A stretch of 64,000 nucleotides of DNA, from NCBI RefSeq assembly GCF_041956535.1, contig NW_027192206.1:461488-525487 (forward strand), given 5' to 3'. The stretch's first letter is position 1. Each line of letters begins with the position of its first letter. A model generated the notes under the pieces. It was not told the origin of the DNA, searched no databases, and saw only the letters and a list, made by a program, of their open reading frames with translations. Shown in pieces: positions 10,701 to 32,222 of this stretch. The translations under genes and the position numbers were made by a program. Origin of the DNA: Calcarisporiella thermophila CBS 279.70. Taxonomy: Eukaryota > Fungi > Calcarisporiellomycota.

Positions 10701-11400
10701 TGATGCCCATTATTTTATCCCGATAGATATATCTCTCTGATTCCTTTTATATATACACTTACATATTGTTCCTTAATTAACTAATAGTAAATATGTGCCT
10801 AGTTCCATGTGGTCTCACTATTTTCAAAGTTTCTGTGGTAAAATAGCCAATGGGGTGTCGTGTATTTATCACTCTAATGACGATAAATGAATAGTCTGTA
10901 AGGAGCTGTGGATATTGGTTGCCAAAGATCTATTGACACCATGGATTAGATTGTTGGTGGCGCCTAATAGTTGGGGGCGAGTATTTTGATACAATATAAA
11001 AGTGGGAAACACGGCCCGAATTGGTACCGATTTGACCATATTGTCTCCCTTTCTAAATGAATCGATGCTGATTGATTGCGAGATAGTAAGCTGCCTACTC
11101 TCTATATCAGATATTAAATGTGGCAAAAAAAAGTAGCTAAATATTGAGCTTAATCTAGTTGAGGGTCAGAATTTTTCAATTTCAATAATACTATATTCCC
11201 TCATTCCAAGAGTACCATGAATACCATATGCTCTACTTCTGCGAACCATACAGCAGAGTTGTAAGGAACCGACGTTTTTGTGTATTTCATGGCCAATGAA
11301 CATAAGTGGAATAATATTCATATGTCTTGCCTTAGATAATGTTTTAGTTTCGTAACATTTACTTATATTTTTGCAATTGCATAATATTCCATTCTAACTT

Positions 11401-12474
11401 CTATAAATAAGTATGGTCGGCATTCTTGGATGCTTGCTTCTTCCTTCGCCATCTATACCAAGGGCGGGAGTCTTGTTTCTCGTTGTTTTTTAAGTCCAGT
11501 TCGAGTTCTTCCTCCGCGCTGCTCGCCTTTGCATCCTTCAGCTCTTGTAATCGGGGGAAGATTTTTAGCTGCCATAACCCCCCCAGAACGGCAACGATGA
11601 GGGCAAACGAGGCCATCACCAGGGCAGGCAAGGTGAAGTTGTAGATAACGCGTGGATTGAGGATAGCTCTGTAGCCGTCGTGATAGCCAGTGGCGAAGAA
11701 TACATCAAAGCCATTAAACATCCTAGATAATCGCATTGCACAAAGTCAGAGTTCCCGAGGATTGTGCCCGAGATGGACAGGATAGGGATACGAAGAGGAA
11801 GAACCCTCTCACTTACGCATAGCTTCCTGAAAACGCAAAAGCGAACAGCCACCCTGCGCTCCTATACTTCTTTATCATCGCAATCGCCGCCCCACTTACC
11901 GTGAAGGCCGCGACTACTCCATATCGTGCAGCAGGTGACGGGAGAACAGTGTCAGATCGCAGAGAAAGCACCATTAGTATCAGCGCGAATCCGCCGAATA
12001 ATCCCGTGACAATGCGATTGAGAGTCTCATGTTTACCCTTGATGTGGAAGGCTATAGCGCCCACGATTCCAGAACCCACCCAGGTCAAAAGGGCAGTCCA
12101 AAGGTCGACCTCGCTTGGGGTCTGTGAACTGACAAAGGCCGAAATAAAAAATCCCGCAATCCATGCTACCACCGTAAAGAGGGTACAGGGAAGAAAGATA
12201 GGAGTAATAGGGATGAGTATAAAAAACCCATAATATTTAAGGGGCGGCATACGGAAAGCGATAGTACCTGAGAAGTAAAACCCTACGAAGGCAGGAGAAT
12301 AAGTGTAAGCGCGATATCCCGAGGAGCACTGGACACCCCCACAAAGGATGAGGATAACTCCGAGAGTGAGATAGGGTGCGGTTGCAAAGTGGATCTCTAT
12401 GGCAAGGTAGGGGATTCAATACTCAAGTGGCTCTACCATCTTTCTGCCATTCTCCTTACCATTCTTGGCGCCAT
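11401..12474 (-). CDS. Multi-pass membrane protein, DUF4203 / TMEM198-TM7S3-like
   Basis: Exons contain LTLGVILILCGGVQCSSGYRAY..FVGFY, TGLFGGFAL and AFSGSYA...GFDVFFATGY, then a final TM helix and basic tail. The first small exon (MAPRM) is tentative. Confidence 0.65.
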
Positions 12475-12969
12475 CGTGAGATTGAGCCAGGACATGCGCA
12501 CCGAACAAACTGAATAGGATAAATAAGAGCATTATCTGAAAGAGAGCGGGGAGAGGGCTGGTACATATTCGGCTGAAATGAGCAGCATGAAGCGAACGCG
12601 CGTTTAATAAGAACTTCCCAATTCATAGCGCAAATTTGGTGGTAACTCGATATGGCAAGCACGACAATGCACGAATGAATTTTTGACCTGTGCACCGATC
12701 TTCTACTGTTAGGAGGCAAGTGAGAGCAAAATTCTCCTGCAGAGAGAGGGGATGGGGTTTGACCCAAACCTTTATTGTTAAGCTAGATATGAAAAAAAAA
12801 ATATCACGGACCATAAAACAGGATGTGCTATTGTCCCCTCGCTCGACTCGTTAAATATATAATATAAAATATAAATAGTAAAATGAATGTATGTACTAAT
12901 AAATAGAACACAAGAGCATATCAGAATGGAAGAAAGAAAGCAATAGAAACACAACCCCAACCTCCCCAT

Positions 12970-14915
12970 TCATTTAGCAGGCGAGTGCAAGGAAGCTAGA
13001 TACGTCCCCCACTCCTGATCCTCCTGCTCTCGGGAGACGACTTCGAAGCCAGATGTTCTCAGTCGGATTAACCTTCCAAACACCCTAATGCTGGTCACCT
13101 CTCCCGGAACACGAGGCAGCAGGCGATCCCTAATGCCAGTGCGGATCAGAAGAACAAAAAGGAACCCAATCAGGGTCACACCGAAAATCCACCACAGATT
13201 CGGGCTATAGACCTCAACCGACTTCACACTCAGGCCGGAAGCAACGAGGCTATTGAAGATCGCGGTGAAGATTAAGCCACCGCCCACGCCTGCGGATGCC
13301 CAAGCAGTGAGGATGATGCCGTGCAGGGCACCGATATTGGACGGGCCAAACATGTCGGTGAGGAAGGCTGGAATGATGCCGAACCCGGCTCCATAGCACG
13401 CGGTGAGCACCCAAATCATGATATTGTGGACCCAATAGGCCTGCGCTTGCATGACGGTGGTAAGCGAGCCAAGAATGACAACCTGGGTGGCCAACATGAT
13501 GATAAAGCAAGCCTTTCTTCCGGTGTAGTCGGACAGCGTGCTGAAAAACAAACGCCCCGCAAGGTTGAAACCACCATTGATCGAAACAATCGTGGCGGCA
13601 GTATCGGGGGTCATTCCGAAAATGTCCGTGATGATGTTGGCTATAATGGAGAGTGCATATGGAGTCAATGGTTAGAGGGTCCAGGATCATAGGTAAGTAA
13701 AACTTATTGGTGAGAGCACCAAGTACATACAGAGGCGAGAAATGAATACTAAGCCAGCGATCTTTGATGAGCAAAAACAACCAGTATCCAACATTTTCTA
13801 TTAACATCTGCATCGGTTGCAATTTTGAAGGGTATCACATACCGAGTTTCCAAAGAACATCACGTACATAAAGCGATAGTCGCGGCTGAATATCGACTCG
13901 ATCAACGTCATATTTATCGTCGGCTCTGAGACCACCGTCGTCACCTGGGATTCCAGTTCGAACTTCTCACTAGAGCGAGTTAGCGGAAGGGCTGTGGAGC
14001 TAACAGATTGACCGCGCACATCCAGCCCATTCACCGTGTAGTTGGGCGGAGGGACCCGGAAGACAGCGCTGCACGCAAGCATCACCCCAAAGTACACTGC
14101 TCCGAGAATAACAAAGGTGAGGGGAAGGCCAACGGCCGCCTGGAGTGGGAGGGGAACTTTGGCAAGGGCAATGGACCCTGCCCCGAAACCGCACACCGCT
14201 AGACCACTAGCAAGTCCACGGTGATCGGGAAACCACTTCTGCAATGGGGAGACCGGTGATATGTAACAGATTCCGAGCCCAATACCGCCCACCACTCCGT
14301 ATCCAAAGTACACCAGGCCAATCAGTTTGAGATAGACCCCGAGACCAGCCAGCATGTTGCCCGACATAAACAAGATAGAGCCAGTCAGCGCTCCAACACG
14401 GGGACCTTTGCGCTCCAGCCAGGGTCCGGCGATGGCGGCGGAAAGACCTATATCATTCAAAAGTGTTAAGTGGGAATATTTCTCAGCTGATACGATAAAA
14501 GGAGGTGCAATAGTTACCGAAGCAGCCGACCGCAATGTAAAAGGTAGAGGGAGCCATATTTGCCTAAGGGTGGAGTAGGTTCTTTTTCAGGCTTGTGTTG
14601 ATATCGGCAGGATACAAGGGCACTTACCGTTGGGGTGCCAAAAATAGCCTGATCGATGGGCTTGTTGAAAACGGACCAAGCGTAGAGAGAACCTACCAGG
14701 AGTGAGGATTTATAAAAAGTTCATGAGAGGGTATGTCTACCTTCATACATACCGCAGATCAGTTGGAAGAGGACGGCAGCGGGCATCATCAGCCAACGGT
14801 TAAAGGGGAGAAATCCAAGGATATATTTTTCCTTTTCGAGCTGTTCGGCCGAACGAGGATAGGTGGTATCGCCCCAATGCCACTGAATAAAACGTATGAT
14901 AGGATTTGTCGACAT
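12970..14915 (-). CDS. MFS transporter, oxalate/formate antiporter (OFA)-like
   Basis: RWLMMPAAVLFQLICG|SLYAWSVFNKPID; GPWLERKGPR; YISPVSPLQKWFPDHRGLASGLAVCGFGAG; LSDYTGRK; YGAGFGIIPAFLTDMFG. Confidence 0.9.
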
Positions 14916-15455
14916 GTCTATTTCGAAGGCTCTTCTTAAGGGCAAAATCAGTGCTTGGGTCTTGCCAATTTTATTTCCGATCTCTTGGCTGGTTAGAATG
15001 GTACAGAGAAATTATCTAAGGGAAGGTGTGCGGATCCCTAAAGAGGGAAACCAAACGTTTTTGATATATGGAGGGAGGAGGGGGAGAAGAATATACTGTC
15101 TATAATATTACAAGGTAATTGACGGTTTTTGAAAAGGAAAGTAGAGGTAAGCAGTTTTCTGGCCAAACTCGAATGTTGAAAATTCAAGGGAAGACGGGTA
15201 GAGTAAAAAGAAGACATGTCCTTTCTCGAGTATTTATCAGTGTCTTGAGCGCCTCAAAGAGGCGTTATATTTGTTTATCGCTTAGAGTTCAACCACTTCG
15301 CCTTTTCTCTGCCATCCTCGGTAATGGCCTTCAAAAATAGAACGGCGGCTGCAAGCGTCCTTTCCCGTTTCCTTCAAAAAATAAGTACTCGCGCTTTCCC
15401 GTTTGGATTAATGAAGCTCGTGGTTGACCTCTTTCGGTGCACCATGAATCCTCAG

Positions 15456-15952
15456 CTAAGCCTTCTTGCACCACTCTCCAATACTGTATTGGATACCCAG
15501 CTTTATTCGGGGGAGGATAGCATCAGCTCTATTCACCAATCCCTCCATTTCATTGGTGATGGCTGCCTTCACCGGGCTTGGCTGTAAACCGATCAGCACC
15601 CTCTTGTTTTCAATAAATAAACTCTCTTCTTGTCATACCTGAGGATATGCAACCTCAGCGACTTTGCCCTCCAAGAAGTGATAGACATAGCAGCTACCCT
15701 CTGTTGCTAAATGATGCACAAAGTGAAATTTTATTATATCTCATCCTCCGTAGGATTGCTAGGAATCCTGGAAAGTGCCACACTATTTGCGTATGTCATG
15801 GTTGAAAATTGATTCTGCCAAGTAGGCGACGAAGCACCCTCATTTGAGAAGTGGCCCATGTTGGCCGAGTCTTGTTTATTAGAGCCATCGAAGTTTATTT
15901 GTCCGCCATCCATTTTTAAAAACATTTCTATGTTTGCGAGATTCTTCACCAT
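15456..15952 (-). CDS. Hypothetical ~120-aa orphan (3-exon model 15952-15784, 15706-15639, 15581-15456) or gene relic
   Basis: Intron 15582-15638 has a GTATGA donor, GCTGAT branch and ACAG acceptor. The three exons join in frame. No family recognised. Confidence 0.3.
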
Positions 15953-16126
15953 CACAATGGCATCGTGATTGACGGGAATCAGTCATGGAGTCTATTGTCT
16001 ACTCACCACTACCAAATACGACAAAGAATGATATAGGTGGTGTATGATATAAATATACGATAATCCACTTTCCGTGCGGCATGTACTCGCGAACCTCGTT
16101 TTTTCCCCGGCCTACTTTGCGCAGTG

Positions 16127-16979
16127 TTAAAAACTCTTGGCTAGCCATCCGTTCAATGCATCCAACAGCTGTCGCGCTTCTTCTTCCGTACGGAACATAT
16201 GATCTGCACCGGGCACCACTTGCAGCTCACTGTTCTCAATCATTTCCTGGAACTTATATGCATCCTTCACGGGTATAGTTTTGTCGCATTCGCCGTGGAT
16301 TATCAACACTCTCGTACGTCCCCCATCTATTCTCGCCACAATGGACATGTCCAAACTGCACCGCTTCTCCATATCCTCTCTCGTCACCACATAGTCTCGA
16401 CCGTTAATGGGCATGGGACACCACACAAACGAGCCCTGCTCGGCAAGGCTCTTGCGCTGTTCGTCAGAAAAACGGAAGGAGGGAGCCTGGGAGTGATCGT
16501 AACGCCCTGCAATATTGACGATGAGGGGGACGTCATTATGCTTGCTAGCATGGCGAAGAACAACAGCGCCGCCACGAGAATGTCCCATGAGGCATCTTAC
16601 ATTCCATTGATGCGAGCGAAGGAAGCCGACAACGTCGTGGAGATTCTCGACCTCCTCATCATAATTGCCATACTTTGCCACCCCGCCTATGTATTCAAAG
16701 AGGCCGGATGAGTGTCATCCGAAGAAAAATGAAATGCAACGGTTATTGGATATTACCTGAATCACCGTTTCCTTCAAAATCGAATGCGAAAACATTGTAT
16801 GGCAATCCACCACAGAGCCCTCGAATAATTTTCGATCGACGAGTGTTGAGAATCCCATGGCAGATGACGATGAGATCGCGAGTGGAATCGCGCACGAAAA
16901 GAGTGCCAACCAGATTGTATCCGTGGGAGCACGGAATGGTCAAGGTTTCTTCGCCTGGTGAGGGTGCAGCAATGGTCAT
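16127..16979 (-). CDS. Alpha/beta-fold hydrolase (esterase/serine aminopeptidase S33-like), 2 exons
   Basis: VICHG, FDFEGNGDSG, nucleophile elbow GHSRGG, IIHGECD (Asp), PGADHMF (His). Confidence 0.9.
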
Positions 16980-17482
16980 TTTCACGAGGATGGGACCTGG
17001 AGTTCGAGGCAAGACTGCCTTTTTATTTCCTGGGCCGTTAATATGTGATTGGATAGAATGTATCTCCCGATTTCAGGGAGAATAAGTAGTCTTATTGAGG
17101 GGGAAATTTTCTCTCTCAAAATGACACTTTGGAACACAAAAAATTTGGGTTTGAGCATTTATTTTGGTTTTGCTGAAAATTAGAACTATTTATTTGAATA
17201 CAGTATTGACATTTGTTAGACTATATATAACGATATCCGATAAAAAATGATTTACTTACAATTTCTACAGTAAATTCCTCTCCCATCGCGTCTAAAGCAA
17301 TGGCGTGTATTTCTTTTTTTTTTTGCCTTTACTATTTTGAATTCCACAAGGTACCAAATTTATGAGGTTGTTATTCCAAAGACAAAAATATTACAAAACC
17401 AACACAGATATAAAACGGAATAATCAAGAATATCGTATCATTCGAAGTATGTAAGCTACAAGGGACAAAACCGGCCACTACA

Positions 17483-19888
17483 TCAGAAAGGTGGCGGAGT
17501 CATGGCTGCCCAAGAGAGAACACCGGAATCATTGCGCCAGTAGGCCTTATACGTGGCCCCAGAACGGGCAATGACTTCAAAGTTACCCCTCAAAGGCGAG
17601 CCAAAGTTGCTTTGAATCAGAGTTACGTCGTCGAAATGGAGAGGATCGCCGAAGGAAGCAGGCCCATGCCAAGGTAGCCCTGCCGCATCGTTTTCTCGCC
17701 ACCAGAGGCCGAGGCCACCACTGGCTAGTGGAGCAATTACCTCGAAATTGCCACGATTACCGAATCGACTCTGAATAAACGCGGGTTCTCCGCGTACCCC
17801 TGTGGCAAAGGCCACGCCTTGATGCCAACCAGTTTCATCGCGATAGAAATGGTGTAATGCGTTTCCAATACGAGCAACCACTTCAAGGTTGCCTGGATTG
17901 CCGTAGTTGCTCTGAATGAGAGCCACTGATGACACTACACCAACATTCGTGGCGAAGACAGTACCACCACTCCACGGGTTGCCAGGGGCATCGTTATTAC
18001 GCCACCAGTGTGCTATTCCTCCGCTGGAGAGTGGAGCAACCAGTTCGAAGTTACCTCTTCCTCCGTAGATGCCTTGGATTAGGGCGGGAGATCCGGACAC
18101 ATTATTAGCAAAGGTAGGACCAATATGCCAGGCAACATTAGAATCACGCCAGAGATGTACAAGATGCGAGCCCACACGCCCAACCACTTCGAAATTGCCG
18201 TGCGAACCGTAGTTACCTTGTAACAACGAGACTCGTCCAATGAAAGTACCGGCATCAGAGGCGAAAGTAGTCGGTCCATGCCAGGGAAGTCCTGTGGTGT
18301 TGTTATCTCGCCAACAGTGGCGGAGCCCTCCACCGGGCGTGGGCACAACCACTTCGAAATTGCCCTGAGAGCCATAGTTACTCTGGATCAACCATCCGCT
18401 GGAATTTGCCGCTGGAGCCAATCGCACAAACTTGCCCACCGAAGGGACGCCGCTTTGGTTCAGCAAGAAAGCAAGATAGTAACCAGGTGGAGCAATCGCA
18501 GGAGTTGGAGGGGCGGTCACTGCGAGTGCTCTTCCACCTTTGCGGTGGAAAGTCACTTCCACGTAGCGCTGATCTGAGTTAAAGGCGTGGGTTACAGATC
18601 CCGCCTTCACCAATACCACCCGGGCAATGTTTGGAGCATCTTGTGTCTCGATATCAAACTGGCGGCCCCACCCGGTAGATCTCTGTACGCGCCCGATCCT
18701 CGGTCGATTTTGATGGACGTAAGATGGCTCGTAGATCTCGATCCTCAGCTCTCGGTTGTCTTGTCCAGGGGGTTGATAGCTTTGGCTCCCATTCTTATTC
18801 GAACCACAGGTCCAGACCCGACCATCGGGCATGAGAAGAGCAACCGAATGGTAATTGCGTGTCACTGTGGCGGTTTCCAGGACGGACCAAGAGTTGGTGG
18901 TGGGATTATACAGCTCGGCAGTGCGGACTGCAGTATTGTCATTCCCTTGATTAACCACACCTCCACAGACGAAAACCATTCCAGTGGGAAGGATGATTGA
19001 GCTGCAGTTGAGTCGCACTGGGCCTCCTGCCAAAGCTCTTGGCCCAGTAGGCTGCCAGCCGGCCGAAGGGTTACCCATATCTAGCAGGTAGGGGATATGC
19101 CCGCCGCAAACCAGCACACGAGCACGATATCCATCGCTGGGACGCAGCGGGAGCAAGACGGAGTTAACGTTCAGGCTTCCATAAATTCCATCTGGAGGAG
19201 CGGGACACAGGTCGTGATAGGCCCCAGTGTTTGGATCCAACGTTAAGGTTCGTTGATTTACTTGAGTAGTGAAGAGAACTTGCCCATTGGGCAGGACATG
19301 CAACCGAGGATAGAAGCCCACCGCATGTGCAGGGTCGGGACCAGTAAGTAGGCGCCAAGTTCCTCGCGAGCGTGGTGACGGAGAAAACTTCTCAGGAGAA
19401 TCATTGTTGTGCCGACTATCCTCGACCATAGGGTGACCGGAGACAGTGAGGATTTGACCGTTGGGTAGAGTAAGTAGTGTAGGGTACCAACGCCCTCCCC
19501 CCACGGTGCGTCCGGGTTCCGGATTCATGTCCGCAACACGAGTCCAGGTATGAGTGGCAGGATCGTACACCCAGGCATCACGTAACCCTGGAAAATGGGT
19601 CGCATGTTGACCTTCGTCCCTTGGAAATGCGCTTGTCCCCCCTGCGACCAAGAGTCGTCCGTCGATAAGGAAGGCATGCCCGCTGCAAAAGACGTCGCTT
19701 CCTGGGGAGGGGGCTCTTCGCACACTCAGCGAGTTGGTGTCGAACAGCCTGGTGTGATCGATCTGGTGCCTCGAATTTTGATCTTTGTCATGCTCATCAC
19801 CACTAAAGTAAAGAATTTCTCCCGTATGTAATAGGGCAGCATGAATTGCCAGCACTTCAGATTTATTTCTAAGGACAATCCAACCCAT
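17483..19888 (-). CDS. Copper-radical oxidase (AA5; Kelch propeller + Ig-like DUF1929 domain) fused to a six-repeat lectin-like beta-propeller; intronless
   Basis: Cofactor motifs FCSGH, RWYPT, RNYHS and SVTHAFN, followed by six LIQSxYG..GNFEV..H.WR..W repeats. First AUG is at 19888 (MGWIVL); the ORF track starts at an upstream TTG. Confidence 0.9.
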   Translation of the reverse strand: MGWIVLRNKSEVLAIHAALLHTGEILYFSGDEHDKDQNSRHQIDHTRLFDTNSLSVRRAPSPGSDVFCSGHAFLIDGRLLVAGGTSAFPRDEGQHATHFPGLRDAWVYDPATHTWTRVADMNPEPGRTVGGGRWYPTLLTLPNGQILTVSGHPMVEDSRHNNDSPEKFSPSPRSRGTWRLLTGPDPAHAVGFYPRLHVLPNGQVLFTTQVNQRTLTLDPNTGAYHDLCPAPPDGIYGSLNVNSVLLPLRPSDGYRARVLVCGGHIPYLLDMGNPSAGWQPTGPRALAGGPVRLNCSSIILPTGMVFVCGGVVNQGNDNTAVRTAELYNPTTNSWSVLETATVTRNYHSVALLMPDGRVWTCGSNKNGSQSYQPPGQDNRELRIEIYEPSYVHQNRPRIGRVQRSTGWGRQFDIETQDAPNIARVVLVKAGSVTHAFNSDQRYVEVTFHRKGGRALAVTAPPTPAIAPPGYYLAFLLNQSGVPSVGKFVRLAPAANSSGWLIQSNYGSQGNFEVVVPTPGGGLRHCWRDNNTTGLPWHGPTTFASDAGTFIGRVSLLQGNYGSHGNFEVVGRVGSHLVHLWRDSNVAWHIGPTFANNVSGSPALIQGIYGGRGNFELVAPLSSGGIAHWWRNNDAPGNPWSGGTVFATNVGVVSSVALIQSNYGNPGNLEVVARIGNALHHFYRDETGWHQGVAFATGVRGEPAFIQSRFGNRGNFEVIAPLASGGLGLWWRENDAAGLPWHGPASFGDPLHFDDVTLIQSNFGSPLRGNFEVIARSGATYKAYWRNDSGVLSWAAMTPPPF

Positions 19889-22808
19889 GATAATGATCAG
19901 GAGAACCGGATGAAATGGGTGAGAAAAAGGTTGCAAGGCTAATTAGACTCAAGATTAGGCCGTTTATATCCTGTTTAAATAAATTTCTTTTTAATGCTAT
20001 TTTAACGGAAGTGGTCTTAAGGCAAAAAGCAATACCTCCATGAAATATCTGTTTTTAGAATAGGAGGGTGCTGTAATATATCCTTGTATGGTCGGAGACA
20101 ATTCATAGCTTAGACTAAAGCTTCTGTCGGTTTTAGACTGGTTGTTTTTTGTCAGTGGAGTATACTTGTCCACCGTCCTTTAAAATAATGTAAGTAGACG
20201 CAGCCCAAACTGCCCTTAGTTATGCAGACATGGCTCGTGATTAACACAATCATGAGCCACTGAAAAATTTCAAATATCTATTGTTATTTTGGACCAATCT
20301 GGTTTCACACATTGGTCGCAGCGCCACGAGGAGCATGGAAAGCCGATCGAACCATAAAGAGACCCTAAAGGGGCCCTCGCTTCGTTATCCTCGTGGGTCG
20401 GATGCTATTCAAACATCGCCCATCCTGCTTTACTACGTTCTAAGGCGCGAAAGGAGTATTACATACTAGATAAAGAAACACAATTTAAGCATGCATCTGT
20501 AAGAAGACATATACCAGGCATTAGGGGGTAAACCCACTGTTTTGTTTGTTCTGTTGATCATTTGTAGGCGATATCCCACCCCCTCGAATTATTTTTCCAA
20601 ACGACGCCGTATGCTGAAGAAAGTGCCAACTCTTGGCGAATTACTACGCTCACAACTAGGCTGTTCTCTCGATTCCGTATGCTCCCCCACAAGGAACATC
20701 TTTTTCCAATAACTATTTACTCCTCATCTCCCTATCAAATGGCCACGGTTTTAGATAAACCTGTTCATGCATTGTGAGCCATTAGCGCTAATACTCGCTC
20801 TCTTTTCTATTAGCTCGGGTGACAATTCTCAAATCCATAATGAGACAGGGTCTTTGATCATTTTAGCTGCGGTTCTCAATTGTTTCCCTGGCAATCTTTG
20901 CTTGCCTTTTGTATGAGCCGGAATAGGAGGGTGTAAAGCCACCTTTACCCCAAAATTTTGCGAATGGATTGAAATTCTATCTCTTAAGAGGTCTATTTCT
21001 TGGGACGCGAATATGAAGATATAGGAATTTCGTACAGGCGATATGAAGTGCGTTTTTAATTTCACAAGGCTCATAAATCATTTCAGCAGTTTTGTTTTTG
21101 GAGAATATCAAGAAAAATGTGTGCGTATCTCCTCGTTTTTTAAACCCCAATTAGAAAGCAGTCGACAAACACGTTGCTTCTCTCCCATTTACCAAAAGCA
21201 ACGATATTGGTATGTATTAGTTGAAGTTAGCAATTGCGAACGTGTATGGATTATTTTCCCATACCTTTGAAGAAATGACAATCAAGAAATCCACAGAAGT
21301 CAGCCAAGAGCGTGAGTAGTTCCGACCTAAACCAAACCTTCTTGGGTACAAAAACGTAAATATCTTTGGCTTCATTTCTTTTTGACTCCTCTCTCCAATA
21401 CCCTCCAACCCCATCCTCCAAATCAAATAAACTATATTATCATAGGATTCACTGCATAAATTGTCTACCCAATCTCACAATATCCAGCTCTCCAAGGCGA
21501 CACAGATCCTCGACATGCGCTTTTGACCATAGATGTTTTTTAACCACGTTGTGTCCCAGAGTTCGCTTCGTCATTCTTTCTTTCTCTCCCTTGGCCATTC
21601 CTAACTAGCATAGATCTCTCCTCCACAAAGCACTGGTGGAGAGGATATATTGCAATACTTCCCTTCAATTTCTCAAATGGGTCTTGGCCATTTCTCCTTC
21701 TTCCTATTACACAAAATGGCAAATCTTCGGCGAAGCATTTTCTAGAATAATCGCAATGGATATATCTCTGAAGAGGACACGGATTATCGAGATTCTTTCC
21801 AGATACATGTCTTGCACATGTCGGTTATATTTTTAAAAAACAATCTAATTCGCTTTCTTAAAATATGGTGGAGTAAGAGAAAAAAATTTTGCTGTTGAGA
21901 TATTAAAATCAGGGTGAGATTTTTCGAACTTTTTGAATATATTCAACCTCATATCCTACAGATATTAGGTCGGATGCATCTCTCACCATCACACTCCACG
22001 TCAGTCTCCTCCTTGATCCCCTCCCACTCTCCCTTTTAGACATCTGTTTGCTGCCATCAAAGATGCTCTGAAAATTGGAAGAGGCGGAGTGGATGGGTGG
22101 TCAATTCGCTCTATTTCATATCAAGATGCATTGTAGAGTACCATCGAGGTTATGCATCTGCCACGCATATTCAAGTCGTCCAGTTCGAAATGAAACATGG
22201 CATGTTCATTGTTCGGAGTTCTTTGAGTCGATGGAGGGGTGCTCCGCCGTTCCCGGTTTTTCCATTCCCATCCGATCAAGTTTGAGCTTGACCGGCTGCT
22301 AGAATATAACCAAAAACTATTAAGGGTAGGGCCTATTCTACTTCATTAAACCATAGCCATAGGACAAGGGAAAGGGGCGAGACACAATCTAACTCCGCTA
22401 CCCCCTCCTGCCTCCCCCTGTCCGTCCCTTTGTTCGCGGATAATGGATCCGTCTTTCCGAAAATTAGCTTTATTTCTCCTTTTTGGCCAGTTTGGCCAAG
22501 GGACAATTAGAGCCATTTTCATTTTTAGTAAGGATTACCCGGGCTTTCCAGCTTTTGTTCTTCATTAAAAAGAAAAAACACCCCCCTCACTGAAGGCGTG
22601 TTTGTTATCTTGGTGTAGTCAGGGCTGTGGATTAGAATTATTGGTCCAAGGACTCGGCGAAAATATCCAGTCGTCTCAGTCCAACGAAGCCTATTTCCCT
22701 CGTGTCATAAGGGTCTTTCGTTGCTCTCCCAATGTGGTTCCGGGGATGGGGAAAAGTAATCTAAAAAACAGAGTTCCAACATCCAATGAAGGCTACCGAA
22801 ATGGTAAT

Positions 22809-23015
22809 ATGAAGGACGGGATCGTTTCTGTTCATTTTTGCTTGTTATTGCAAGCTGCTTGTTTGTTTTATGTGGCGGTAGCTTTGCCTACAGGGTTACT
22901 TGGTAGCATGCAAGGTTGTTTGTTAGGCTGCATGATTACTTGCATGGCCATCTTCTGCACTAGTTTATTGTTTGCTACGGTTGGCTTTATTTGTTCTCCC
23001 ATATGCATTGTTTGA
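22809..23015 (+). CDS. Candidate 68-aa small secreted cysteine-rich peptide
   Basis: Hydrophobic leader ending VAVA|LP, with six Cys in the putative mature part. No homology recognised. Confidence 0.25.
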   Translation: MKDGIVSVHFCLLLQAACLFYVAVALPTGLLGSMQGCLLGCMITCMAIFCTSLLFATVGFICSPICIV

Positions 23016-23541
23016 TAACATTGTCTGCTTTGTGCATCCAAAGTTTCGTTGACGCACAAAACAGACAAGGTGTGTAAACTCTCTGCCCATGGGGCTTCCT
23101 CTGCGTCCTCTCCATTTCTCCCATACCACACCTGGTTCAACCCAACAAAGTGGACCGCGAAGGAGGTTCAAAATTGGGGTTGCTTTTCGTCAGCTGACCT
23201 AGTTTGACAAACAAGCTGGTTGCAAATACTTCCGACTGAGATCATGTTGCGCGAAAAAAAAACAAGCTGTCGTTTGTTACCATGTCAACTCTGATCTAGG
23301 TGGAACATGCATACAAACAAAAGGTTTGGATTGAGGAGGAGGGGGGGGGGGGCAATGAGCCGCCTGTCTTTGCAACAGGAATAAAGTCATGTTGGATTGT
23401 ATCTGACACATGGATGTTGTTTACAAGAGAAATGGTTCGCTATCGTTGCCATATCGAAGCGAAGAAAAAGAAAGAGGAAAAAAATGAGGTGAGGGAAATG
23501 GGTGAATGCAAGCGTCGATCCATTAGAATCGCTTCTTTCCA

Positions 23542-24793
23542 TCACAGGTTCAAATCCTTACTGAAGCAAGCAAATTCACGCTTCACCATGTCCGGCTTCA
23601 TGATGAGGCGGAGGTCTTTAGCGATGTATTGGTAGCCCTGTTAAGCAAAGCAGGTTGATTAGGAGGCAGAGATCCCCTCCGAAAGAGCCGCGGATCCTAC
23701 CTTGGCACTGAAAAATCGGCCATTTGCGTCGTAGAGGTCGCGGCGGTTGTACTCGTAATTCTTCAGGTCGATGCGGGGGCCAGCCAACACGCCTTGCGGC
23801 CCGCTGTTCTCCAAAAAAGCACCATTAGTGTGGCAGGCCTTGCAATGGGGGGGGAGGGGGAGACTGGTCTGCCGAGCGGAGCCCTTACCTCTCAAGATAC
23901 TCGGCCAGCAGACGATTGCGCTCCTCATTCGCTGCGCATTGGTCGGGGGTCAACTCCTCCACGTCCCCGGCGGTGGGGATGGAGAGAATATAGACGGACC
24001 GATTGGTCCCTGTCTTGCGGATATGCTCCGAAATGGCACGGAGATTGTGGATTGTCTGTACAGGCGAAATGGCCTCTTTTGTGGTTCTAATGAAGAGCCC
24101 TATGGTCAGCAACAAGGATTGAGTTGAAGGAGAGGCCAGCTGGAGCGCTTACCGGGCATCTTCGGATCCTAGCACAATAACAAAGATCTCTGCCTCGAGT
24201 AACTTGGGCTCTCGAAGTACCGAGTCCAAGAGCTTGGGTTTTTGCAGTCGTTTCTGAAGAAGCAGACCAATAGCCGGCGAGGCCAATTAGCATTCATAAT
24301 GTAGGGAGGGGGGATAAACAAATCATTGACAAACAAACCGATTCCGACTCTGGCAGCCAGTCTTCAGAGGTGGTGCCAAACTGGCCGCGATTGTAGACTA
24401 GCCATTTCTGGCGGATGGTAGGCTCTTGAGCAAAGGATGAGGGCAAACGGCCGGCAATGCCTGAGAAGAATGAGGGGAAGCCGCAAAAGTTAGCACTCCA
24501 TTAAAAAAGACAAGCGCCACAAGGTACCGGTCGCGATCTGGGCCCTGGCCCATTCTCCGTCGCCATAGCCTAATGCGAAGCCATCGCCCAACACGACCAT
24601 TGTGTGCTCGTAGCGCTCTCCCTTGGAGATGGGCTCGAAAATCCACTACCATAGAATGCAAGATTAGGCATTCGAATGCATTCTCGAATTCCGGAATTCC
24701 AAGAATACAGACTCGCTTGTAGAGAAGAATGCAGAGCCGGGCGTAAACCCAGAGGAGAGAGTAGAGGCGACAAAGCCCCTCCAGCGGTTCCAT
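23542..24793 (-). CDS. SGNH/GDSL hydrolase-fold protein with degenerate catalytic motifs, multi-exon
   Basis: Spliced model gives MVVLGDGFALG (block I), VYNRGQFGTTSEDW (block II), IVLGSEDA (block III), YDANGRFFSAK|GYQYIAKDL (block V). Confidence 0.7.
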
Positions 24794-24889
24794 AGGGGTG
24801 CAGAAGGACGGGACGCGCGCGGATAATGTAAGGGCGAGGTTGGGCCGAGCATGCAAAGGCAATGAAGGATTCCGCAGGTCGGGCATAAG

Positions 24890-25540
24890 CCACCAAGCGG
24901 ATGACGCCGCCCGCGCGGGGGGGCAAGGAGTTTCTGTTTTCGCGGGCGGCGAGGGCCCTGGTTCGCACACCGGGGGGGGGGGGGAAGCCCAGCGGGGATC
25001 AGCACGAGGAGGAGCGTGTGAGGGCGTGGGGCGGCTTGGAGCGCTGCAGCACAATAAAATAGATAAATGAAATGAAATAAAAAAGAAATTATTTGATTTC
25101 CTGCCTTGACTAATCAGGCGCGGGTATGCGGGTGTGCCTAAGGTTTGGCTGGTTGCCGCGGGCGGCTGAAGGGCTCGCGCGGATTGCTGCAAGGCCGCGC
25201 GGCGCCATTGGTCCACCGCGGCCTCCGGGAATGGGGGATGGGTTTGCGCGCTTGCCCAATCCGGGCCGCCCCCAAGCTGACACTTACGCCAAAAGGGCGG
25301 GCTGCAGCGCATCCCAAACTTTCGGGCCATGCACCTGAGGAGGACAGCAGCCGCGCTGGCTGCAGGCCAGAACAATAATTTCCAAAAGCTGCGCGCCCGG
25401 GGGCGGGTTGTTTGTGTGGGAAGAATTTTGACAGCGTCAAGTCAAATTTCAAATGCCGGGCCCGCGTCATTCCTGCCACCGGCGGCCCTCCCAGCCTGGC
25501 CGCCGGGCCGCCCGCCTGCCCTCGCGCCCATGCCCTTATC
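24890..25540. promoter_or_regulatory. GC/CpG-rich divergent promoter region with G-runs between the SGNH-like and homeobox genes
   Basis: Dense CG/GCGC and a G13 run near 24972-24984. ORFs here are Pro/Arg/Ala low-complexity. Confidence 0.5.
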
Positions 25541-25845
25541 AATGGCTTGCAGATTGCACCGAAAAAATAGAGCACTAATTAACGAAAACGTGCACCGAAA
25601 ATCCTCTTCACACGCACGCCCACATCCCCTATCGCCGCCCTTTCTCTTTTTTTTTTCACACTACGAGCTTTTTAGAGTTATCTCCCCGTGAAATCTACTC
25701 CCCCTTGCGTTGGCCGCCCTGCGTTTGAGATATTTAAATTACTGCCTCTATATCTCCCCTTTCTTCTCTCCTCATTTCCTCTCCCAATTGGCCTCTCCCC
25801 CCCACCCCGCGCCTCCATGTGTATACTTGCCGTGCCGTCTTCGCC

Positions 25846-26758
25846 ATGATGTATCACCACGACCAGCAGGTAGGCTCCCCTCAATGCCCTCTTTCATGGC
25901 CACAGGCCCTTACTGATGGAGGCCGCCTCTCCCATCTCCCCCTACAACAGTTGCGCATTCGCCAGTTTGCCCCCGTAATTCTGTACCATGACGCCCTCAT
26001 GCTCCCTCCGCTTCATCACCTGCACAAGCAGCGCATCAGCGACATGCTGCGGGAGCATTCAAAACAATGGGAGGGCATAATTCGGGACTACCAAGGTAGT
26101 CATCCATTCCGCTTTCTAATGCGGACCAATGTTGGGCGGCGAGTAGGACCGCCTCTCGCATGGCCAGCAATGCCGCCCATGGCCCCTCCCGATATTCCTC
26201 CATGATCCGCTAACATGCCCTCCTATTTTCCCTCTAGGTAGCATTGGCCTGCTGCCGAGGAAGCGCGACGTGCCCCACTCTCCATCCCTGACCTCCGACT
26301 CTGCTTATGCCTCATCATCGGATACCAGCGTCTCGCCCCCCTTACCCCCCCATCCCGCCCAGGACCCATACAGCTCCATCCATGCGCCCTCTCCCAATTC
26401 CCCCCCATCCCTCCCATCCCTCCCAAAGCGCCGCCGAGGAAACCTCCCAAAATCAACCACCGCCATTCTGCGCGCTTGGTTGGCCCAGCACGAGCGGCAT
26501 CCCTACCCCACGGAGGAGGAGAAGTCCGAGCTCGCGCAGCAGACCCGCCTGACCCTGAATCAAATCTCCAACTGGTTCATTAATGCACGGCGGAGATACC
26601 TGGTGCGCGGCAAGGTGGGCGGGTACGGGCTGCGGTCGATGCGGGATCGGGGCCAGAGCGAGGTTGATTACGCGGAGGAGGAGAGCTCCAGCGGGGGGGA
26701 GGAGTTCCGTCGCGGCGTGGACCCCAATCGGTATCCTAAGCGCCCGAGAGCACGCTAG
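25846..26758 (+). CDS. TALE-class homeodomain transcription factor (Homeobox_KN; Cup9/Tos8/TGIF-like), 3 exons
   Basis: [33 protein letters not shown]...[12 protein letters not shown] with the PYP loop and I50. Confidence 0.9.
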
Positions 26759-30956: not shown

Positions 30957-32222
30957 CTAGACAATATTATCGCCCACACACCCCTTCTCCCTCTCGATCC
31001 CGATGGTTGTCCAATCGAAGCCGTAGTCGTGGCCCGGAAGCACCACCACCCGATCCTCCAAAGCCCCCAGCACATGGCTCAGCGAGTGCCGCATCGACTC
31101 CGACGAGCCCCCCGGTAAGTCGGTCCGCCCGCAGATACCCCCCAATAGGGTGTCCCCTGCCAGTAATCGACACCCGTTCACCAGCACACATTGGGAGCCG
31201 GGCGTGTGGCCGGGCGTGTGCAAGAACTTCAGCACGGTGCCGCCCATCCGGATCTGTTCGGGGGATGGCACGAGTCGGTGGGGCTGGATGGAGGGATTGG
31301 CGGAGAGCACCGGCTGGATGTCCAGAGGGTGCACATAGGCGGGGATGTGGGGGAACTTTTTGAGGAGGGTCGCGAGACCCGAGACCTTGATCGGGATCGA
31401 GTCGTAGGGCGGGGGAGGGCTTCCGCCCACATGGTCAAAATGGTGGTGCGTAACAATGCAGGCCACCAGGGTATAGTTCTCTTCGCGTATAAACCGCACA
31501 ATGCCCTCCACGTCCCAGCAGGCGTCGACAGCAATGCACTCGCGCGTTGCGAGATCGGCAACTATGTAAATGAGATTTTTCATCATTTCTGCATACTCGA
31601 AGACGCGATTCTGCACCGGGGAAGTGAAGCTGCGCTCTAGCGCAATGTCTCTCCCCGGCAGCAAAGCCTCGATCGCGAATCCCATTCTCCTGTTGTCTCT
31701 CTGCATCAGCGCTTTTGACAATCTATTCTTTATGTCGGTCCCGTTCTCTGTGTCGAGTTTAATGGCGCACTTATAGTCCTCTATGGCTGCATCGAACTGA
31801 TGCTGGCGAAGCAGTGCCTCTGCGCGACGCAGATAACCTTTGGCCCAATTCGGTCGCAAGCGCACCACCTGATCTGCATCCTGCTTTGCCTGGGTATACT
31901 GGCGCAGCATAAAGTAGCTTGCGCTGCGGTTGGAGTAAAGGAGAGCTAGAAAATCGCTTGGCTCTGGAGACACTACTTCCACTGCTTGGATAGCCTTGAA
32001 ATACTCAGTGATGGCATCCTTATAATACCGGCGCTGAAACTAGATGAAATGGAAGGAATCTCCGTGAGAATAAGCGCAGATGTAGATAAAGAATGGTATA
32101 CGTACATTATCGTTCGCTCGGCATACGTATTTGTACGTGCGATCATCAGGTGCCTCTGGATGAAAGGCAGCCTTCGGCCCGGATGCGATGGATGGGGGTT
32201 TCCTTGAATCCGAACGCGACAT
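30957..32222 (-). CDS. TPR-repeat / metallo-beta-lactamase (glyoxalase II-like) fusion protein, 2 exons
   Basis: TPRs (LYSNRSASYF, PNWAKGYLRRAEAL) followed in the same exon by THHHFDH, HTPGHTPGSQC, AGDTL and PGHDY. Confidence 0.88.

Follow-up and report, generated by a model that had tools for sequence, protein, structure and literature searches.

The present analysis concerns one gene in a window of 64,000 nucleotides (the whole stretch of DNA analyzed) from the fungus Calcarisporiella thermophila CBS 279.70 (contig NW_027192206.1, positions 461,488 to 525,487 of the forward strand; positions below are those of the window). The gene lies at 17483-19888 on the minus strand as an unbroken frame of 801 codons plus a stop. 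It is predicted to encode a copper radical oxidase of the AA5 type fused to a second, lectin-like β-propeller, and it was probably acquired long ago, in one piece, from a bacterium. No other frame in the window stays free of stops for as long (819 codons from stop to stop; the runner-up has 416), and a scan of the gene for introns revealed nothing intron-like that had a strong donor. NCBI has the exact 801-residue sequence, placed on a 736,877-base contig, and so does UniRef, where it forms a cluster of one; no paralog was found in that cluster, nor a close one among the best matches listed. The features of the gene and its product are as follows.

17483..19888, minus strand: intronless open reading frame, 801 residues, predicted copper radical oxidase plus six-bladed β-propeller, no signal peptide
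19963..19968, minus strand: TATAAA box, read from the sequence, 75-80 nucleotides upstream of the ATG and followed by a pyrimidine-rich leader
18707..19888, minus strand: catalytic Kelch β-propeller, residues 1-394 (PF07250 at 54 bits, Kelch motifs; top Foldseek matches GlxA and galactose oxidase)
18422..18706, minus strand: immunoglobulin (Ig)-like early-set domain, residues 395-489, formerly DUF1929, which holds H434 (PF09118 at 87.7 bits, cut-off 25)
19685..19687, minus strand: Cys68, by alignment the cross-link Cys of the Tyr-Cys radical cofactor (FCTGH in GlxA; 251 of 253 family rows)
19484..19489, minus strand: Trp134-Tyr135, the putative stacking Trp and radical Tyr, compare W288-Y289 of GlxA (252 and 253 of 253 rows)
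18848..18853, minus strand: Tyr346-His347, copper ligands by the GlxA alignment (253 of 253 rows each)
18587..18589, minus strand: His434, distal copper ligand by the GlxA alignment (252 of 253 rows)
17486..18406, minus strand: six-repeat β-propeller, residues 495-801, in which long blades alternate with short ones; the fold is lectin-like

The conservation counts refer to 253 nonredundant rows of the family. Both Pfam domains of the oxidase part score above their cut-offs, and its AlphaFold model, made with a 66-row alignment, reaches a predicted local distance difference test score (pLDDT) of 92. When that model was compared with solved structures by Foldseek, GlxA ranked first and fungal AA5 enzymes next, with 20-24% identity throughout. 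The marks of the AA5 family are present, namely the Cys-Tyr cofactor pair, the Tyr-His and distal His ligands, and the Kelch and Ig-like domains, and the protein is thus predicted to be an AA5-type copper radical oxidase in which no copper or cofactor residue is missing. Among solved proteins Streptomyces GlxA (SCO2837 family, PDB 4UNM) matches best, with 161 bits by sequence and first rank by fold; it has the same Cys, Trp-Tyr, Tyr-His, and His set, with the Trp directly preceding the radical Tyr (W134-Y135). A preliminary description of this DNA, made from the letters alone, had read the motifs AIHAALL (residues 14-20), FCSGH (67-71), GRWYPTL (132-138), and VSG (149-151) as those of GlxA-type and other bacterial Kelch/DUF1929 proteins. 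All four are located in the protein and its relatives are bacterial, but it is not a strict GlxA: it scores 225 bits against the GlxA family NF052501 of NCBIfam, whose cut-off is 800, it is without the ~110-residue insert that follows the first blade (GlxA 117-230 corresponds to residues 94-98 here), it has a C-terminal propeller and no signal or membrane anchor, and the structural identity is ~22%. The fungal AA5_2 galactose/alcohol oxidases and AA5_1 glyoxal oxidases likewise combine Kelch and Ig-like domains with the same copper ligands; however, the solved fungal enzymes reach only 77-105 bits, and the fungal enzymes are secreted. In place of the C-terminal six-bladed propeller, galactose oxidase carries a CBM32 sugar-binding module, which docks it on glycans (PMC12355970).

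The second propeller gave no match in a scan of the Pfam library. AlphaFold modeled six blades for residues 495-801, with a pLDDT of 93, and three independent tools put lectins first for the domain. Foldseek returned the seven-bladed PLL lectins (template modeling score about 0.7), an exhaustive structural aligner returned RSL (Z 27.3) and AAL (Z 26.7), followed by AofleA and SapL1, and the Atlas assigned the domain to PLL-like clusters (0.95; low recognition score). The fucose lectins RSL, AAL, and AFL have six blades, as here, and the same alternating two-blade unit repeated three times; they fit with Z 26-27 and a root-mean-square deviation (rmsd) of 2.7-2.9 over 262-283 residues (for RSL, the best fit, 2.7 over 262 aligned residues), but the identity is 9-16%. 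The fucose site of RSL and AAL consists of Arg, Glu, and Trp. The PLL lectins of Photorhabdus (PF26607), the top Atlas and Foldseek matches, have a Trp-rich repeat that may be similar to the one here: W536, W587, W639, and W740 are invariant in 69 rows, and the blades keep invariant Trp, Arg, and Asn. PF26607 is precomputed on P0002 and other relatives, with none on the query protein, and PLL proteins have seven blades (PMC6943638), one more than the propeller described here, which is moreover part of an enzyme fusion. Judged from the models, the propeller is likely a sugar-binding lectin module. The same six-bladed propeller stands alone in proteins of 373-399 residues from Methanotrichaceae archaea (P0315, P0384, P0389, P0393), which form one clade in the 67-row tree described below.

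The preliminary description had proposed a bacterial origin for the gene, to be examined by a protein search and by separate trees of the two domains. The search scored 7999 candidates, 1666 of which passed 1e-10, and its figures refer to the best 119 nonself rows. Fourteen of these are full-length matches of the same architecture (coverage 98-100%, identity 49-60%), and all 10 rows that carry an organism name are bacteria. The best bacterial-contig protein scores 1111 bits and an oxidase-only relative 645, far from the scores of GlxA and the solved fungal enzymes given above. With the propeller alone as query, the 10 named rows among the best 120 comprise 6 bacteria and 4 archaea. No named eukaryotic match appears among the best 120 rows with either query, in a collection that includes many Mucoromycota proteomes. 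A scan of metagenomes, reported here for the best 80 of 364 loci, placed L002, L003, and L004 closest, with 59-61% identity and 67-71% GC, so that full-length identity to bacterial proteins extends up to 61%. Genes near these three loci resemble LuxR- and LysR-like regulators, cytochrome b, and an ATP-grasp-maturase methyltransferase, all below curated cut-offs; profile matches were obtained for 6 of the 21 neighbors tested. The L004 protein shares a 90% cluster with a protein from a Mycobacteriales metagenome-assembled genome (MAG), a neighbor of it is identical to another Mycobacteriales protein, and the nearest Atlas cluster (789 residues) is 100% bacterial, mostly Actinomycetota. Together with HSV64377.1 (Mycobacteriales MAG) and HEV2070756.1 (Acidimicrobiales MAG), the fusions of L002-L004 have the length, domain order, and signal-less start of the fungal protein and are 50-61% identical to it; they differ in lying on high-GC bacterial contigs, with a GC at third codon positions (GC3) of 0.73-0.95. 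No characterized member of this group was found in the literature searched.

The wider bacterial family spans several phyla and several domain orders, with 45 oxidase-first and 27 propeller-first records (duplicates included), and a search of 50% representatives gave 24,236 matches. When GTDB was scanned with the single protein, 1 locus came up; it is a Longimicrobium gene with the propeller first (L001, 5974-8376, plus strand), in a genome that contains three PF09118 genes. The family also includes bacterial copper radical oxidases of about 498 residues that consist of the oxidase only and have no signal (P0029-P0054); they form a tight clade and are 54-57% identical to the oxidase domain.

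Phylogenetic analysis agrees with the scores. In the oxidase tree of 253 rows (FastTree) the fungal protein groups with L002 and L004 at a support of 99, and in an IQ-TREE analysis of 75 of these rows (the first 45, one in nine of those remaining, and the named rows) the same group is found at 100/100, with a bootstrap that had not fully settled. A two-domain tree of 20 oxidase-first fusions gives 100/99 for this group, and a tree of the propellers alone of the same 20 fusions gives 95/99. In these trees the two domains thus have the same pair of bacterial lineages as partners, and the trees, combined with the full-length bacterial homologs, uphold the proposed horizontal acquisition from bacteria. 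Read most simply, they point to a fusion that arose among bacteria and was transferred whole. Collectively, we consider it likely that the fungus acquired this gene long ago from a bacterium in one piece; its product is predicted to be a copper radical oxidase whose second propeller probably binds sugars and which would work without a classical export signal.

Several observations weigh against this account. Organism names cover only 10 of the 119 rows, the others being mostly metagenomic, and all trees were built without fungal AA5 rows, such that the separation from fungal clades is one of score gaps and not of tested topology. In a propeller tree of 67 of 170 rows the domain stands apart from its oxidase sisters; this hinted at a separate origin of the two domains, which is unsupported by an approximately unbiased test, in which grouping with the oxidase sisters was not rejected (p 0.165), and by the 20-row trees. 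The junctions of 17483-19888 are known from assembled sequence alone and the gene from DNA alone, and in early-diverging fungal proteomes contaminants have been reported to be ~20 times commoner than xenologs (PMC11291939). An automated, fungi-only clustering places one C. thermophila protein in an AA5_2 orthogroup (PMC11393059, supplement). The codon use of the gene is near uniform (a codon score of -1.255) and fits a moderate-GC bacterium equally well; 19 of the 80 metagenome loci of the family are below 58% GC, making a moderate-GC donor possible, and these two facts therefore leave the age of the transfer unfixed. Finally, a profile of the propeller found no solved relative by sequence in the PDB, and sialidase propellers nearly tie with the lectins (Z up to 26.3 against 27.3).

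The orthogroup placement bears on the idea that the gene is the sole survivor of an ancient AA5 lineage of fungi, or that it passed from fungi to bacteria. AA5 genes do occur in Mucoromycota (PMC8778642), and a fungus-to-Streptomyces transfer has been proposed for glxA (PMC3543389). However, an alien oxidase would be expected to fall into an AA5_2 orthogroup because no bacteria were included in that clustering, and the orthogroup has 0 members in six other early-diverging fungi, as far as species can be told from the portal codes of that supplement (PMC11393059). Vertical descent would also have to explain why no named eukaryote is found among the best 120 rows despite the many Mucoromycota proteomes searched, and why the protein forms a single tip within a bacterial family as diverse as this one, with several phyla and several domain orders; we find it scarcely credible. 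The same supplement lists six AA5_1 genes, no AA5_2 gene, and two unassigned AA5 genes for C. thermophila (PMC11393059), and the bacterial-type oxidase would thus be an addition to the AA5_1 oxidases of the host, not a replacement. The second unassigned gene may be another bacterial-type oxidase.

A second rival holds that assembly error or contamination put a piece of bacterial DNA into a fungal contig, and here the surroundings of the gene become important. The two nearest host genes are the following.

16127..16979, minus strand: downstream host gene, α/β-hydrolase, with one 70-nucleotide intron (16756-16687)
23542..24600, minus strand: upstream host gene with five predicted introns, SGNH-like by motifs only

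The hydrolase intron is of the GT-AG type, and its removal yields an open frame of 260 residues. The upstream gene requires five GT-AG introns; its SGNH label is a by-eye reading of motifs, and Pfam returned nothing for 4 of 4 of its exon pieces. Farther along the window, the threonyl-tRNA synthetase gene is also spliced (seven tblastn pieces), and the fungal matches of its exon include Jimgerdemannia at 78%, by which match the host is a Mucoromycota fungus. The contrast drawn earlier between an intronless 2.4-kb gene and spliced neighbors is therefore borne out on both sides. The sole run of N in the window is at 1420-1779, with no such gap within 15 kb of the gene, in keeping with the earlier judgment that contamination is unlikely, and the 736,877-base contig that carries the oxidase gene also encodes the spliced fungal synthetase. 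In a blastn comparison of 11000-26000 with the bacterial loci, matches were confined to 17600-19892, and no open reading frame of the flanks near the gene matched those loci; bacterial similarity ends where the frame ends. The flanks, at 34% and 42% GC, contain a TATAAA box and no bacterial neighbor genes, whereas a bacterium of 54% GC would be gene-dense, and the GC3 of the gene is far from that of its nearest relatives. What keeps the possibility alive is that such proteomes are often contaminated (PMC11291939), that one published C. thermophila assembly, possibly another than this one, is a short-read assembly (PMC11393059, supplement), and that moderate-GC bacteria carry the oxidase family. 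On balance we regard an artifact as highly improbable. Bacterial xenologs described in PMC11291939 resemble the oxidase gene in being intron-poor and in lying on contigs with fungal genes. According to that study Mucoromycota have the fewest bacterial transfers and Actinobacteria are among the common donors; the parts of its text and tables consulted do not mention the genus Calcarisporiella and contain no row for PF09118, PF07250, or DUF1929.

Other signals were sought as well. Bacterial σ70 sites number 2, against 3.7 expected; terminator-like sites number 7, against 3.7 expected, none of them at the 3′ end of the gene on its strand; and no transposon or target-site repeats beyond short chance repeats were detected in 14500-26300. 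A 12-mer shared with one mismatch by 19958-19969 and 17033-17044 (minus strand), 70 and 54 nucleotides upstream of the oxidase and hydrolase starts, was considered as a trace of promoter duplication and rejected, as 10% of 300 random intergenic 200-mers match equally well and 8 loose matches were found against 8.5 expected. The ATG of the oxidase has an A at -3 and no Shine-Dalgarno-like purine-rich run, whereas 7 of 9 full-length bacterial relatives have, at least in part, a GGAG/GAGG run just before the ATG, clear in L004-L007 and L009. Judged by the TATA box and leader, a eukaryotic promoter may be inferred on the 5′ side. The gene-poor region noted upstream is real, with a gap of 3.65 kb, but does not clearly stand out, because the stretch at 35.2-38.6 kb is likewise without open reading frames of at least 120 residues (gene content there being read from such frames alone). 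Elsewhere in the window, a 360-codon frame (30957-32039, minus strand) fuses tetratricopeptide repeats to a metallo-β-lactamase-fold domain; it has a 28% match at one metagenome locus, L051.

Base composition had also been cited in favor of transfer. The gene is indeed more GC-rich (0.541) than its flanks (0.340 and 0.422), but this compares coding with noncoding DNA only, the flanks being low because they are noncoding, and is no evidence of transfer. Against 21 host exons chosen by hand and trimmed at their ends (4599 codons), which have a pooled GC of 0.555 (range 0.447-0.645) and a pooled GC3 of 0.641 (range 0.40-0.86), the gene, with a GC3 of 0.507, looks like host exons and lies far below its bacterial relatives; GC content was accordingly rejected as evidence. 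The GC3 of the host exons itself is uneven, at 0.72-0.86 around 0-7 kb and 26-32 kb compared with 0.40-0.60 beyond 38 kb, and composition is therefore a poor test for a foreign gene here. The supplement of PMC11393059 lists 0.50/0.12 and 54.89/5.53 for C. thermophila under headings that appear to be swapped; the value 0.50 may be the mean GC3, which the gene would match, although the assembly is possibly a different one.

Silent sites are more informative. The GC3 of 0.507 contrasts with 0.78-0.89 in L002-L004, and GC at four-fold sites is 0.45-0.47, compared with 0.75-0.89 in five bacterial relatives. Relative to the same five, 0.71-0.75 of the four-fold sites differ (0.76-0.77 for unrelated sequences) while only 0.24-0.28 of the second codon positions do, at a protein identity of 56-61%. 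In neutral simulations at 10% change the frame stayed open in 0 of 2000 runs. By codon choice the gene fits low-GC host exons (-1.25 per codon) far better than it fits the bacterial relatives (-1.51); the host exons taken together give -1.28 and uniform codon use gives -1.255. Saturated silent sites with an open frame favor an old, selected, and integrated gene rather than contamination. These data also bear on a real but recent transfer from an unsampled moderate-GC bacterium, which might have left a silent or decaying gene. Saturation was measured against relatives and not against the donor, codon use is near uniform, and the gene has gained no intron and has no paralog found, all of which speak for this reading. 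Nonetheless, the 801 codons contain no stop or frameshift, all six active-site residues are kept, no cotransferred bacterial DNA is seen on either side, and the ribosome-binding context is gone; a recent transfer is quite unlikely.

A further alternative accepts the origin proposed here and differs as to the protein: the propeller might be structural, peptide binding, or otherwise not a lectin, or the enzyme might be exported by way of a missed upstream exon. Besides the sialidases, Kelch propellers score close to the lectins in the structural aligner, and of three possible in-frame upstream splices one, from an ATG at 20106 across 20099 to 19939 (the acceptor), adds 19 residues with a hydrophobic stretch. 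In opposition, lectins come first with all three tools and the Trp, Arg, and Asn of the blades are invariant; the donor of that splice, GTCTCC, is nonconsensus, the deposited protein starts at Met1, and Met1 is also the start of the bacterial relatives. Judged by offset and hydrophobicity rather than by a dedicated signal predictor, 14 of 17 oxidase-first fusions begin at the oxidase without a leader, with Met1 matching, and 129 of all 211 protein records begin at the oxidase. This alternative is doubtful but carries appreciable weight. The region 19869-20106 (minus strand) holds intron-like GT-AG pairs, and a frame at 20054-19872 reads like a short signal-type peptide; both are probably chance features of the pyrimidine-rich leader.

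If the gene is an old bacterial acquisition, its donor would have been an actinobacterium or a similar high-GC bacterium, and in the fungus it would have come under a TATA promoter, its silent sites drifting to host values while the protein was kept by selection. The enzyme would bind one copper and form a Tyr135-Cys68 radical. AA5 enzymes oxidize primary alcohols or aldehydes with O2 and release H2O2 (PMC11267884, PMC11611005), and the fungal protein would be expected to do the same. The six-bladed propeller may dock it on glycans, in the manner of the CBM32 and WSC modules of fungal AA5 enzymes, and so confine oxidation and peroxide release to their vicinity. The protein would be made in the cytoplasm and would act, most likely, after nonclassical release or cell damage. 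The fungal defense lectins of the AAL type have no signal sequence and are stored in the cytoplasm (PMC6272156), an analogy that suggests a possible role in defense after release. In its most specific form, this proposal makes the protein a cytoplasmic chimerolectin, a captured bacterial, lectin-guided peroxide generator that would be stored without a signal and probably copper-free, be released on grazing or lysis, bind the glycans of predators or competitors through six sugar sites, and generate H2O2 there; we consider this version speculative and rather unlikely.

Early-diverging fungi are well known to carry single genes of bacterial origin, and the transfer by itself is modest news, tempered by the reports that Mucoromycota have the fewest transfers (PMC11291939) and that the direction argued until now for AA5 transfer is from fungi to Streptomyces (PMC3543389). 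Searches of the open-access literature brought up neither this gene nor any AA5 enzyme fused to such a propeller, and what the analysis offers is a well-supported case of the transfer of a single gene with an uncharacterized, signal-less oxidase-lectin architecture. The protein is the more useful part, as it draws attention to signal-less copper radical oxidases with a lectin-like propeller at either end, a wide branch in bacteria; if the chimerolectin proposal is true, the bacterial relatives would form a large, uncharacterized branch of such enzymes. The copy in this thermophilic fungus, a single exon that is directly expressible, would make the substrate range, the working of a copper radical oxidase in the cytoplasm, and the aiming of peroxide by a propeller testable.

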